Source: Ginglymostoma cirratum
Lineage: Eukaryota
Assembly (NCBI GenBank): GCA_024137785.1
Contig: JAHRHZ010000144.1
Span: 19,792,482-19,856,481 of the forward strand
Length of the DNA: 64,000 nucleotides
Direction: 5' to 3'
A program made the translations under genes and the position numbers. The notes below the pieces were generated by a model, which was not told the origin of the DNA, made no database searches, and saw nothing but the letters and a program-made list of their open reading frames with translations. Position 1 is the stretch's first letter; the number at the start of each line of letters is the position of its first letter. Below are positions 13,551-63,115 of this stretch, one piece after another.

Positions 13551-13650
13551 NNNNNNNNNNNNNNNNNNNNNNNNNNNNNNNNNNNNNNNNNNNNNNNNNN
13601 NNNNNNNNNNNNNNNNNNNNNNNNNNNNNNNNNNNNNNNNNNNNNNNNNN
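13551..13650. other. Assembly gap (100 N) preceded by a G21 run
   Basis: Seen directly in the sequence. Confidence 1.
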
Positions 13651-16576: not shown

Positions 16577-16836
16577 AAAACAACAAGAGCTGGTTATGCA
16601 AGATCAAAAGATGTGGCAATGGCACAGATCTGGTGAAAGATGCATCAGCCTAAAACGATAGCTGTTTTTCTCTCCACAGATGTTTTGAGTATTTCTTGCA
16701 TTTTCTACTATTTGTTCAGTGGTTGAATGCATCTTATGTTCAATGCGTATTTTTCTAAATTGGGTAGCTGATTAGAAATTTACATGTATGTCATAAATAA
16801 ACTGTTTTCACAAATTTAAAAAAAAAACTTTCTTAC

Positions 16837-18053
16837 CTTTGACGCCCACACAAACTCATTTTGGGTTTGCCCTCGTGGGATTTCCTCTTCCCCATTTTTC
16901 ATGGTTGATTTACTGTTATCCTCTTTGCTCTGCAAAAAATGATCGTCCAGTTTGTTCTTGATCCTACCACCTCTAGCTCGATAATCAGCTAAAAGCTTTG
17001 ACAAGCTCTGGTTATTTCCTAAGGAATGAGTTATTCTGGTACTCAGCAGATCATGAGATGGAAGAATTTGAGTGCTTTTTGCCTGCATATTACCATTCAG
17101 ACTTTGAAGGTTTGTCAAGTCCTTTAGTAGTTGTTTCTTCCTCCTGCATTCTATTTCCTTTATATCTTTGTGCAAGAGAGGGGACCAATAGACTTGTTCT
17201 GGGAAGTAACCTCTTGTTGGACACTTCATACCTTTCTCAGTCAATAGGAAAGGCTCTTTGAAAGTAATAAAAGGAGATATGCAAAGAATGACATCTTTAA
17301 GTTCCTGCTTGAATGCAACAGAGTAGGATTTCAACCGATCTTCAGAGGAAGTAACATGTTCAGTAATGAACAGATCTGTATCATCCTGAAGGGGATCACG
17401 GAAACGTTTAGGTCTGTTTCCGACAGATGGTTCAGAGTTATTTAACAAACTGGGTTGTTCACGTAAGAATGCATGGTAAGTGTCTGAAGGCCCTTGGTCT
17501 TTCTTGTTTTCAGATAAGATGGAGTCTATTACAGGGGCATGGACAGATGACGTCAAAGGAGGGTCAAGAAAAGGTGTCTCAAAATCTGGAGGGGCCATAT
17601 CAAGTGTGGACCCCTCAGGTTTTACAAAAATACTGTCTCTGGAAACACTTCTTCTCAATGGCTTCTCTTCTTCACAAAACGTATTATCTTTTGGATAGTC
17701 AAAACTGGCAGTTGGTGCAAATTCAGATCCCAAGGAAATGTCTTCAATTGGACCATCAGAGTCTTTGGAAAGACTGCCAAAGTTCTCATCAGTAAACAAG
17801 TCCTGTCCATCATTTTCAGCAGTCTCACCATCAATAATGGAATGAATTGATCCACTTTTAGATAAACTTGGGGGCATGGCAAACTCATCCATGAGAAAAG
17901 AAAGCTCCAGTCGAGAATGATAAGCTACACAGATCATGAATATAATAATTTCTTTCACTCTTGCTAATTCATATTCTGTAGCACCTCTCAGCTTCACAGT
18001 GCAGCCCAAATGTTGGGGGCAACCTTCAAAAAACATGAGTGTCTTTATGTGAC
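16837..18053 (-). CDS. PIKFYVE: PIKFYVE large exon (GHIKTLMFFEGCPQHLG...LLADYRARGG...FVWASK)
   Basis: Lies inside the 486-aa ORF; acceptor cacctag, donor AAG|GTAAGA; 1217 nt, phase 1-0. Confidence 0.96.
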
Positions 18054-18893
18054 CTAGGTGGAGAAAATGGAAATAAATTAGTGACATTTCCAAACTGTCT
18101 GTTACATTGCATACAGTAGCAAAGACATCCACATATAAAAGCTGCCAATCAGTACATTTTAATCCTGATCTGATGTAATCTGCAAACGCTCTTGATAATT
18201 TTTTTTTAAAAAAAAAATTGTTCCGTTTAAAGCTTTTTGCCAAACTGTCAAAGTAATCCTGTAAGAGGCCTTTCAAGATGGGTCGAATGGCCTTCTTCTG
18301 TATTGTAAATTCTATGATTCATAGCAGATTAAAAATCACTCCGTATGCAAGGCAAAACATGAATTAAAGCAAGAGCTGGCAGAATGCCACATTCTACTAA
18401 TTCCTATATTGGCTGTTTATGCCATAATTTGGAATTACAAATGCACGAAATAGTGAAAATGCTGGTTTGCAAATAGCATCAATAATTCCCTTACTATAGG
18501 AACAATAAATCGTTACGTCTATTTTATGTCTTGCAGAACTCAAAGTTTTTGCTTTTTATGAACAGGACAATTTTTAAAGAGTAATTAATTGGAATTTTCT
18601 AAGAACAGATGATAATACAATACATTGGGCTATAACAGTCTCCCAATTGTACCCCGAAGTTTACTCTGATTTTTAATTAATTGAAACTTCCCCAAATCGA
18701 GAAAGGAATAAAAAAGCAAACAATGGTTTTGTGGATATTTATTGCTCGAAAGATAGCAATGTAGCAAACTAGAACCTTTGAACTAATATCCAGTCTGCAC
18801 CTAGTTAGCTGTAAGGCCACTAACTTAGCAAGATGTGAAATATTAAAAAATTCCTATTTAATGTAAGCATTCTCTGAAAGGGGTCGGTGATTT

Positions 18894-59250: not shown

Positions 59251-59713
59251 AGAATTTCAAGGCGAAGTATTGTGGTTGATTCAGTATAGTATATATTAAT
59301 ATTATGTTAGATGAAATGTATGTAGGTTACATTTTTAAATAAACAGTATTGTTTGTTTTAATCTGTTCCATTGTAACAATTCTGCACAGACAGGAATTGT
59401 TCAAAAGTGTTACTGCACAAAAGAATCAATATTATGACCTGGCCTAAAAGACTGGTTTAAAATTGAAATCAACTTCCTCCAAGTATATATGACAAATAAT
59501 GTAAGATAGTAAGATACAGTAAGACAACTCAACCTAACTTATGTCATCAATAAATCTTGCAATCACTGTTTTCTTTTTAAACGTTTTAATCATACTGCAT
59601 AATTTCTTTCTCCATAAAGATGAAAAGCATATTCATGACTGATGGTTATATTTATTTAGTCCACCATAATGTACGCAAAACTAATCACTTGCCCTCTTCC
59701 AGTTGTTCAAATT

Positions 59714-59738
59714 AATCAATCAATCAATCAATCAATCA
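59714..59738 (+). repeat. (AATC)n microsatellite
   Basis: aatcaatcaatcaatcaatcaatc. Confidence 0.9.
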
Positions 59739-59794
59739 TCGGCACATACTAAGAAGAAAAGTTCACCTCAAAATTGACTTTCCTATTTACGTAC

Positions 59795-59966
59795 CAGCAT
59801 AACCCATGAACTTCCCAGGTATTTCTTGATTGCAACAACGACTGCAAAAGATCTGTCCACACAAACGGCAATGATGTCGACGTCTGAAGGTGGTAAACTT
59901 CTCATTACAATCATAACACTCTTTACACTGACTATCTGGCATCCAGTATTGCTTCAGATCAGTATC
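59795..59966 (-). CDS. PIKFYVE: PIKFYVE exon, FYVE zinc finger (DTDLKQYWMPDSQCKEC...RRHHCRLCGQIFCSRCC...MGYA)
   Basis: Acceptor aaaacag, donor G|GTACGT; 172 nt, phase 0-1; WxxD and RRHHCR FYVE motifs. Confidence 0.97.
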
Positions 59967-60088
59967 CTGTTTTGCAAAACCAGGAAACAATCCAGGAATC
60001 AATGATTTTGAACTATTAGAACTTATGTGCATGCATTACAAATAAACACATCTTGCTGTATTCTGTTACAAGTAAAGCTTTTTCATGA

Positions 60089-60992
60089 CTTGCTCGCCGA
60101 GCTGGTTGGTTGTGGTTTAGACGTTTCATCATCGTGCTAGATAACATCATCACTGCAGCCTCCGCTGAAGCAATGCAGTTCTACTCCGCTTAGTATTTAT
60201 ATGATCCGGTGTGTTGAACTGTTTCGTGTCATTTTGGTTCTTTTTTGCAAGGTTTTGTATGAGGTCTAATTCCATATGTTTATTGCTTGCATTACGGGTG
60301 GAGAACCGGGTCTTTAGGAATTCCCCATGTGTGTCTATGGTTGACTTGAGTTAGGATGGTCACTTAGTCCCAGTTAAATTGATGGCCTTCATTGTGCGAG
60401 TGTACTGAAATGAGGGAAAGGTCGTCATGTCATTTTGCTGCTAGCTGGTGTTCGTGTATCTCGATGGCTAGTTTCCTTCCTGTCTGGAGGATGTAATATT
60501 TTTGGCAGTCCTTGCACAGTAATTTGTACAGTACGTTGGTCCTGCATGTTGTGGGTATGGAGTCTTTGGTTCTGGTGAGTGTTCGTCTAACACCAGCCAT
60601 GAGCAAAACGACACAACAAGCTTTCCCTCATTTCAGTACACTCAGACAATGAAGGCTATCAATTTAACCGGGACGATGTGACCATCCTAGCTCAAGCCAA
60701 CCACAGACACACATGGGAATTCCTGGAGGCCTGGTTCTCCACCTGTAATAAAGTCAATAAACATGGGGAATTAGACCCCATATACAAACCCTTGCAAAAA
60801 AGAACCGGAAAAGACAAAACACCTCAACTGACCGGATCGTATAAATGAGTAGAACTACATCGCTTCATCGGAGGCCGCACTGATGCTGATACCCAGCATG
60901 GTAACAAAACACCTGAACTACAACCAGCCAGCTCAGCAAGCAAATCAACAAGCTCATCCACAACCCGAGCTACAAATCTTCACAAGAACCTT
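60089..60992. mobile_element. Penelope-like element remnant with inverted 3' ends (pLTR-like), GIY-YIG fragment and 14-bp TSD
   Basis: Minus-strand peptide TNVLYKLLCKDCQKYYILQTGRKLAIEIHEHQ (60421-60540); arms 60089-60439 and 60602-60943; TSD aagctttttcatga at 60075-60088 and 60993-61006. Confidence 0.85.
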
Positions 60993-62002
60993 AAGCTTTT
61001 TCATGATTTCAGTTCCTCCTTATTTGGTACCTTGATATGCAACTTTGTTATAACGAGAACTTAAACTGTTCAGCATTACAATCTGAGCAAGAATGAAGGA
61101 CTGACAGAAATCAAATTTTTGCAGTTACTGTAACACATGCATCATCACTCTTGTACAGGACTATGGCACAAGGTGGTGACAGTTCATGTAATAAAAATTG
61201 TCCCATTTTCCCCCCAAACTCCAATCGTTTATTGTTTTTCTCGGAGTTCTTCTGGTCAGTGATTTGGCTCTTCACTTCCTTAACTTTCCATTTCCTATCT
61301 GTTGAGAGGTCGTGTCAGTCATTCTCACAATTAGACCATTGGAAGTCCACCTTCTCTTGAGGGCAGTTATCAGCAAAAATGCTATTTCTCCTTTCTGAAA
61401 TACATTTCAAAGACATCAAACCTATCCATCAATGGCCACCTTAAATCTGTTGGGGGCAGTTGTATGAAAAATACACTCGGGGAAAGATAGAAATGCATTG
61501 TCCTAACACTTGTTACAATAACTTCTGTTCCCTTTTCTTGAAAAGTTTTGCAATGAATCCTTTTATCCAAGCATTTGGCATTGCCCACACAATTGAAAAA
61601 ACATAAGATGACAAACAAGTTCTCTTTTCCAATTTCTTTGCAGAATTCTACATAAATGTGCATCTTTCTGAGTGACTGCCTGCTCTTCAAAGGTAGGAAC
61701 AGTGCATCGCAGATATTCAAAGCAATCAGATATTGTACTTGTTAATGAAATCCCATTGGCCATCTCTGCTCTTTATACCTTCAAGTTTGGCAACAAACCT
61801 GTTGCCCAAGTATTAGCACATTTTCTGTTTTTATGTTTGATGCAATCTTTTCTATGAGGATAAAGTACTCTTGGAAGGTTCTATACAATTGTTTAGTGGG
61901 TGGCCATTTATTCTAGTCCTTCCTGCCTTCCGAGCCTGTTTTCCCTTTCTAGTTTTATGTGCTGCAGGTTAACAATTTAACTCTGTTTACTGTGTACTGT
62001 AC

Positions 62003-62159: not shown

Positions 62160-63115
62160 CATAGGGTTACATCAGGTACACAGCACAGAAACAAGCTATT
62201 CAGTTCAACCTGTCCATGCGAGCATTTCTGCTTCTCCCTTACTTCATCTAAATTTAAGATAACCCTCTATTCCTTTCTTCCACATGTGCTCAACTTCCCC
62301 TTAGATGCATTGATAATATCCACTTCAACCATTCCCTGTGGTAGTGCGTGGTTCCATATTCTCATGATTCTGCATTAAGAATTTTCTTCGAGTCCTCTAT
62401 TGAATTTCTTGGCCATTATCTTGTATTGATTGCCTCTAGTTAGGCTCTTCTCTACAAAAGCAAACTTTCTCTTTGTATCCATTATCAAAATTTTCATTAT
62501 TTTAGACCACTATTAAGTCACCACATAGCTTTCATTTTCAAGAGAAGAGAGACCCATTCCTTTCCTGACTTACCCACATATTCCTGGCATCATCACTGCG
62601 AACGTTCTCTGTACCTGTCCAGCATCATTTTCATAACATGGCAAGTAGAACTGCAGGCAGTACTCAACGCATTGAACTAAGGTTTGATATTTGAGGTTAG
62701 CATAACTTCCTTACTATTTTTAAAATTCTATCCCCCTTGATAGAAAGCTTATTGCTTAATGTCCTTTTATTTTTAAATGATATTGCCTGTGGCACAACTT
62801 TTAGTGATTGATTTAGTATGTGCACTCAAGAGATCCCTTGACAGTCTATCTCCACCTAGATTCGTATCTTCCAAGTAACAAGTAGCCTCCGTAAATTATC
62901 AAAAGTGCCAGTTCAATTTTGTGTGTTCAGCTTCACTTGCCAATTATTTGCCCATTCTGTAAGATTATTAATGTTCTTTTGTAATTTATTACAGTCCTCC
63001 TCAGTATAATACACAAATATAGAAAATTATTTTGATTCCAAATCATTAATGTCAACTGTGACCAGTAGCAGTATCAGCACTGACCCTTGTGGAATACCAC
63101 TTGCCATGTTCTGCC
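62160..63115 (-). mobile_element. Decayed CR1-type LINE 3' fragment
   Basis: cagcactgacccttgtggaatacc (GIPQGSVL on the minus strand) and a CR1-like 3' region. Confidence 0.65.

Follow-up and report, generated by a model that had tools for sequence, protein, structure and literature searches.

An old head-to-head insertion of two truncated Penelope-like element ends beside the FYVE exon of PIKFYVE, and the family pattern to which it belongs

Two questions are raised by the intron next to the FYVE exon of PIKFYVE in Ginglymostoma cirratum: how an inverted pair of Penelope-like element (PLE) sequences came to stand there between two perfect 14-bp repeats, and whether the hairpin that the pair is predicted to form in the pre-mRNA matters to the gene. 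The reading that we favour, with a probability of roughly 0.8, is that the 3' end of a PLE was laid down twice, head to head and each time truncated at 5', in one old event, and that both copies are now likely inert. Taken alone, the locus is of little matter, since the genome has thousands of such dead copies and the layout is a published one; the pattern of its family (paired end types, non-nested arms, target-site duplications of 9-14 bp) bears on how PLEs finish integration. The analysis covered a stretch of 64,000 nt, called here the window, together with own-genome copies of the family.

The two copies fill positions 60089-60992 head to head (500 + 404 nt; Table 1), with no spacer DNA between them. 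Self-comparison confirmed the inverted repeat, arm against arm giving 303 identical positions in 363 columns (83.5%; 17 gap columns), in good agreement with the arms of about 350 bp given in the preliminary description of the locus. That description had spoken of inverted pLTRs; since the C-terminal half of the endonuclease is encoded in the right arm as well, the arms are truncated element ends, endonuclease included, and not pLTRs alone. A tail is found on the right arm only; the left arm is tail-less and stops 9 nt before the point at which tail-less copies of the family usually end, at TCA, a triplet also found in the target-site duplication (TSD). At 62588-62655 a short stretch resembles the pLTR region at chance level, and BLAST with the family did not recover it.

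Table 1. Features of the insertion and of its surroundings in the window.
Feature	Position	Strand	Remarks
PIKFYVE exon, first part of FYVE finger, 172 nt	59795..59966	-	Pfam FYVE E 6.7e-17
Host intron, 2,036 nt	59967..62002	-	Insertion + one TSD copy = 918 nt of intron
TSD, left copy, 14 bp	60075..60088		Last 3 nt also match left arm end
Left arm, 5'-truncated PLE copy, 500 nt	60089..60588	-	Linker, frameshifted GIY-YIG region, pLTR
Minimal hammerhead remnant, sense in pre-mRNA	60120..60153	-	Core C3 reads G
GIY-YIG endonuclease remnant, N-terminal half	60433..60588	-	CxxC kept; YIG reads YIL
Right arm, 5'-truncated PLE copy, 404 nt	60589..60992	+	C-terminal endonuclease half, pLTR, tail
Minimal hammerhead remnant	60880..60913	+	Core changes A9, G12, U of cleavage triplet
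One-sided PLE tail, 38-39 nt	60957..60994	+	Ends ~112 nt past first in-frame ATG
TSD, right copy, 14 bp	60993..61006		AA at 60993-60994 overlaps right arm's last AA

The flanking repeat, AAGCTTTTTCATGA, is exact on both sides (60075-60088 and 60993-61006), as had been described, and has no further occurrence in the 64-kb window; its TSD score of 14 lies above those of all 1,256 mismatched-flank controls, whose maximum was 8. That a perfect 14-mer should have survived an arm divergence of about 15% is somewhat lucky, with a chance that we estimate at about 10-15%. The same repeat weighs on the notion of two separate insertions that landed back to back, the 14-mer recurring by chance, for which it may be said that the window arms are no more related than random copies and that the family is dense in the genome. 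The score above every control, the direct abutment of the arms, the failure of BLAST with the family to find any other copy in the 64-kb window and the family-wide occurrence of mixed ends described below lead us to reject that notion as extremely improbable.

The identity of the element follows from its endonuclease. On the minus strand, RRTLTRTKDSIPTTCRTNVLYKLLCKDCQKYYILQTGRKLAIEIHEHQLAAK (60433-60588) matches the endonuclease region of P0003 at 44% identity (pairwise, E 2e-13); this protein, like P0004, is a full-length RT + endonuclease protein used as a reference; on the plus strand, positions 60603-60845 of the right arm give the C-terminal half of the domain at 41% identity to the same protein. 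The matched residues of P0003 are 697-809 for the minus arm, whose frame is broken by a frameshift, and for the plus arm 752-820, and the CCHH motif of GIY-YIG is seen, as CxxC plus downstream H residues, in both the window and the family copies. A GIY-YIG peptide of the PLE type, as proposed from a first inspection, is borne out by the likeness to P0003; the Pfam GIY-YIG profile itself matched none of the PLE peptides of the window and a sister copy only weakly (E 0.0097, below the curated cut-off). The window retains the endonuclease part only, with no RT left. At the family level, both the RT and the C-terminal endonuclease of an EN+ PLE are found: RVT_1 is matched (Pfam, E 6e-5), and the long copies L073-L075 are collinear with P0003 and P0004 from their N-termini as far as the endonuclease at the C-terminal end. 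These long copies are near full-length and broken (L073 915-4785, L074 1596-4690, L075 1500-4968), and they run in the textbook order of inverted truncated copy, partial direct pLTR, ORF and 3' pLTR, L073 with a TSD of 10 bp.

The finer placement of the family relies on the linker between RT and endonuclease, in which Neptune and Nematis possess a CX2-5CxxC zinc finger (PMC8557442; here and throughout, comparisons with published systems draw on excerpts of the papers cited). This motif is absent from the 95 residues before the endonuclease in the in-frame copies L067, L075 and L069, which, on the scheme of PMC8557442, puts the family with Penelope/Poseidon; judged by that linker, it is classed as a Poseidon-type PLE. 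Its nearest database proteins, P0003 and P0004 among them, are 42-44% identical, the alignments covering more than 90% of the 323 residues of the query. One of these proteins is named from a trematode; with only 3 matches among 757 candidates, a nearest protein so named is weak ground for a claim of transfer.

How typical the locus is can be judged from its relatives. Own-genome searches yielded 3,691, 4,133 and 14,327 first-look candidates, of which 40, 40 and 150 were scored; by the first-look candidates the family has thousands of copies in the genome, and among the scored copies the best are 85-89% alike to the window element. The 3' ends of the family fall into two peaks, 38-39 nt apart, a distance that corresponds to the tail already known from PLEs. 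Ends were paired on 60 loci from two own-genome searches, less three duplicates, half of the loci having come from a tail-bearing query; of the 28 head-to-head pairs that kept both ends, 27 join one tailed to one tail-less end (one of them, L059, resting on a short 74-nt partner), and one joins two tails. Mixed ends were likewise found in all 13 pairs recovered by an endonuclease-region query, which did not select for ends. As to duplications, which were scored on longer stretches, 27 of 36 pair rows (two loci appear twice) lie above the control's 95th percentile for TSD score, and most of the duplications measure 9-14 bp. The near-constant pairing of ends and these short duplications together support a single event, and with the TSD of the window they uphold the single insertion that had been inferred for the locus. 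When loci were anchored on the tail (n=28), an inverted tail-less partner was present in 16, an internal-ending inverted partner in three, a tailed partner in one and none in the available flanks in eight, so that the layout of the window is the family's commonest form. Some individual loci may be mentioned in passing. The sole tail/tail pair, L040 (1362-1726), has a scrambled junction of 24 nt; L014 (G000:C23, 1139-3159) has a perfect 13-bp TSD and arms that are 8% apart, against 12.6% to other copies; and beside or inside copies such as L017, L027, L028 and L035 there is a short repeat of ~130 nt, not related to the family and probably a younger SINE, whose likeness from locus to locus is 85-96%.

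The inner junctions are more variable than the ends. Among the pairs they show overlaps of 0-4 nt or short inserts, and the differing breakpoints among loci indicate that each insertion builds the structure afresh and that it is not a mobile unit. The alternative, namely that the whole 918-nt inverted structure is a MITE-like non-autonomous unit copied as such, could appeal to L002, L003, L004 and L011, which match across the inner junction, and to L003, L004 and L006, which match over almost the whole element; however, their junctions differ on both arms and these loci are 75-80% alike, no closer than single-arm copies. With no common internal junction among the loci examined, this alternative is largely refuted and scarcely credible.

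The relatedness of paired arms tells of their source. In 27 of 29 pair rows the arms are closer to each other than to the median other copy, most markedly in the divergent subfamilies L003, L004 and L011, which points to a shared source for paired arms. Those same three loci, which are 75-80% alike to the window element, give the clearest sign of a single source, 14-22 derived variants being common to their two arms. At the window locus the arms are 14.8% apart against a median of 14.0% to other copies (non-CpG), 63% of other copies being as close as the partner arm or closer, with only 2 shared derived variants. Since the window arms are no closer than random copies, a shared template is not shown for this locus, and neither homogenisation nor selection for pairing is seen. 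Against the family majority the arms differ by 8.5% and 7.3% in non-CpG columns, the family median being 7.0% (n=90).

Some of these regularities may be accounted for by supposing that the endonuclease makes two nicks 14 nt apart and that both free 3' ends would then serve as primers for reverse transcription of element RNA, at the two internal start sites known from in vitro work. One cDNA would begin at the tail end (~+112 from the first ATG), the other at the tail-less site (+65 at this locus, +74 as a rule), with the help of a primer-template match of 2-3 nt. Both cDNAs would stop early and their unfinished ends would be joined to each other, the fixed pairing of unlike ends arising if two enzymes occupied different start sites on a single RNA or complex. 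Once inserted, the arms would decay independently; in pre-mRNA they are predicted to fold into an imperfect duplex of ~360 bp that lies wholly in the intron and would be tolerated. That such a coupled two-enzyme reaction, in which the enzymes are forced onto different start sites, makes the mixed and non-nested pairs is put forward tentatively. In vitro, the Poseidon of Anolis cleaves and extends both strands and uses two internal start sites, of which the main lies 111-118 nt into the ORF (PMC11167929). The paper reports no strand difference in start sites, so that the coupling of ends goes unexplained by that assay.

The way in which the two arms overlap bears on the making of the second arm. 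At this locus the tail-less arm has ~130 nt more 5' sequence than its partner and the tailed arm ~47 nt more 3' sequence; neither, then, is contained in the other or can be a copy of it, an argument against a simple fold-back. The same arrangement, with the tail-less arm extending further 5' and the tailed arm further 3', is shown by 11 of 24 simple pairs, this locus included (L073 being dropped from 25 as tandem), and in the tail-anchored set the tail-less arm is the longer in 3 of 12 pairs. It is also conceivable, though rather doubtful, that within the same single insertion the second arm arose by fold-back or self-priming, or from an antisense template as proposed in PMC3846280, and that a later central deletion gave the asymmetry. 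Junction palindromes have been read as self-priming (PMC3846280), the junction overlaps of 0-4 nt fit deletion joints too, in 9 of the 12 tail-anchored pairs it is the tailed arm that is longer, and a later deletion at the centre of the hairpin could mimic non-nested arms; conversely, the window junction has no palindrome, extra sequence is held by both of its arms, and the 11 simple pairs would each need such a deletion. The 3/12 share in the tail-anchored set, together with the possibility of central deletion, keeps self-priming (PMC3846280) a live rival. If the coupled reaction were true, the thousands of fossil products here would reveal the second-strand step of PLEs; the family pattern bears as well on the making of inverted copies, and the prediction can be put to the in vitro Poseidon system.

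Each arm also bears the damaged hammerhead string quoted for it in the preliminary description (60120-60153, minus; 60880-60913, plus), and the remark made there, that their consensus restores the core, is right: in the family the majority core is intact by column counts over ~97 copies. An intact core was seen in 38 of 96 family copies, the window arms showing 1 and 3 mismatches, and the core of an active ribozyme (CUGAnGA / GAAA / NUH) is present in neither. The plus-arm hammerhead overlaps the first codons of the element ORF; the link from pLTR to ORF start is seen in the long copies, and BLASTP of the 38-codon pLTR frame against P0004 gave no match. Neither window hammerhead folds as such when taken alone, both being buried in the long predicted duplex, and an Rfam scan of the window returned no hammerhead family, only four chance-level matches. 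The change of C3 to G found in the minus arm abolished cleavage by the ribozyme of PAc, the Poseidon of Anolis carolinensis (PMC11167929), and on sequence grounds neither window copy should be expected to cleave. Lying on opposite strands, the two could not form a dimeric ribozyme in one RNA.

The insertion is not private to this genome. Four of 24 listed sequencing runs were compared: a contig of organism C (59300-60323) crosses the left junction and contigs of organism B cross the right one by 41 nt, the insertion being present in each case and the flanks differing by ~5-7%. Because organisms B and C, both related to this one, carry it, the insertion predates those splits; no empty site was seen among the 15 joints listed (of 15 + 176). 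Shared insertions such as this one are usable phylogenetic markers.

There remains the question of the host gene. The FYVE exon and a DEP exon downstream of it lie on one strand, together with an open frame of 500 residues (16819-18318, minus) that matches 7k2v_A, a 1-phosphatidylinositol 3-phosphate 5-kinase, at E 6.5e-37 and corresponds to the large central PIKFYVE exon, and these three identify the gene as PIKFYVE; a PDB search with the FYVE exon gave other FYVE proteins only, and one with the DEP exon gave no match. A run of 100 N occupies 13551-13650 within the gene. The acceptor of the FYVE exon, placed in the first account about 120 nt from the insertion in PIKFYVE, is separated from the TSD by 108 nt and from the end of the arm by ~122 nt. 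The pre-mRNA strand of the insertion is predicted to form one long duplex (-532.7 kcal/mol, z -34 over 20 shuffles), in accordance with the long dsRNA foreseen for it and as any inverted repeat would fold; the sequence from acceptor to duplex, including a candidate branch point chosen by eye, stands outside it. One contig of run X1 (probably RNA) matches the FYVE exon from boundary to boundary and continues into different sequence at either end, as expected of a spliced message.

ADAR commonly edits long inverted repeats in introns, and incidental editing of this duplex is plausible by analogy. It is a different matter to suppose that the hairpin has been co-opted, ADAR editing the duplex and splicing of the FYVE exon being tuned thereby. 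The predicted stability of the duplex, its start so near the acceptor, its retention in organisms B and C and the plausibility of incidental editing could all be cited for such a role; yet retention is expected of any fixed neutral insertion, the arms show no excess similarity, and their wobble-forming and A-C-forming differences stand at 24:16 (p=0.27). A contig of organism C differs by 11% over 60540-60902 against 6-7% in the flanking intron, if orthologous. One intron holds both arms, whence no exon would be looped out, skipping of the 172-nt exon would shift the frame (the length not being a multiple of 3), and the X1 contig includes the exon. The kinds of substitution in X1 were balanced (A>G 20, T>C 18, C>T 25, G>A 23), but paralogues admitted at 85% likeness dominate these contigs, and the balance carries no weight on editing either way. 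Were the insertion to act in the splicing of PIKFYVE, that would be notable, and nothing in the analysis supports such a role: the effect on splicing suggested earlier is not sustained, given the commonest layout of the family, the lack of excess likeness between arms, their position outside the acceptor region and the exon-bearing spliced contig. We regard co-option as very improbable and the insertion as likely inert now, its hairpin showing no sign of being kept for function.

Viewed against known systems, the locus is in large part familiar. The insertion units of EN+ PLEs comprise an inverted 5'-truncated copy, a one-sided tail of 30-40 bp and a TSD (PMC8557442, Fig. 2), and the same head-to-head copy, one-sided tail and short TSD recur in Pen2/Pen2a_Av (PMC3846280) and in the window, with 5' truncation and a pLTR overlapping the first ORF codons also common to window and EN+ units. 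Unlike those units, the window copies are truncated in the endonuclease region and have no RT left, and the inner junction lacks a palindrome; the TSD, at 14 bp, is longer than the 8-10 bp of the rotifer examples. With PAc (PMC11167929) the element shares a C-terminal GIY-YIG domain, a hammerhead that overlaps the ORF start and an AT-rich target, and its tailed end lies ~112 nt past the first ATG where PAc starts 111-118 nt in; the window copy, however, is dead, and the likeness is one of described features and not of directly compared sequence.

The majority hammerhead of the family shares with the minimal metazoan PLE hammerheads of PMC4209133 its core, the extra base before helix II, the G10.1-C11.1 pair, the 6-bp helix II, the absence of helix III and the palindromic CG at 15.2/16.2; the window copies differ in their changed cores and opposite strands, and the family in a helix I of only 2-3 bp. 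Hammerhead pairs on opposite strands, 100-700 bp apart, have themselves been noted (PMC4209133). As with inverted Alu pairs in introns (PMC13019027), an intronic retroelement duplex in pre-mRNA offers a potential ADAR substrate, but here a single insertion probably gave rise to the pair, and its arms share an intron, so that no exon is looped out as in the exon skipping caused by inverted Alus. Our literature search, for which Arkhipova 2006 and Evgen'ev and Arkhipova 2005 may hold further material, met with no count of end pairing or of arm nesting in the excerpts consulted. The layout of inverted truncated copy, one-sided tail and TSD is already known (PMC8557442, PMC3846280); what this locus adds, in a small way, is a pair of arms neither of which contains the other.
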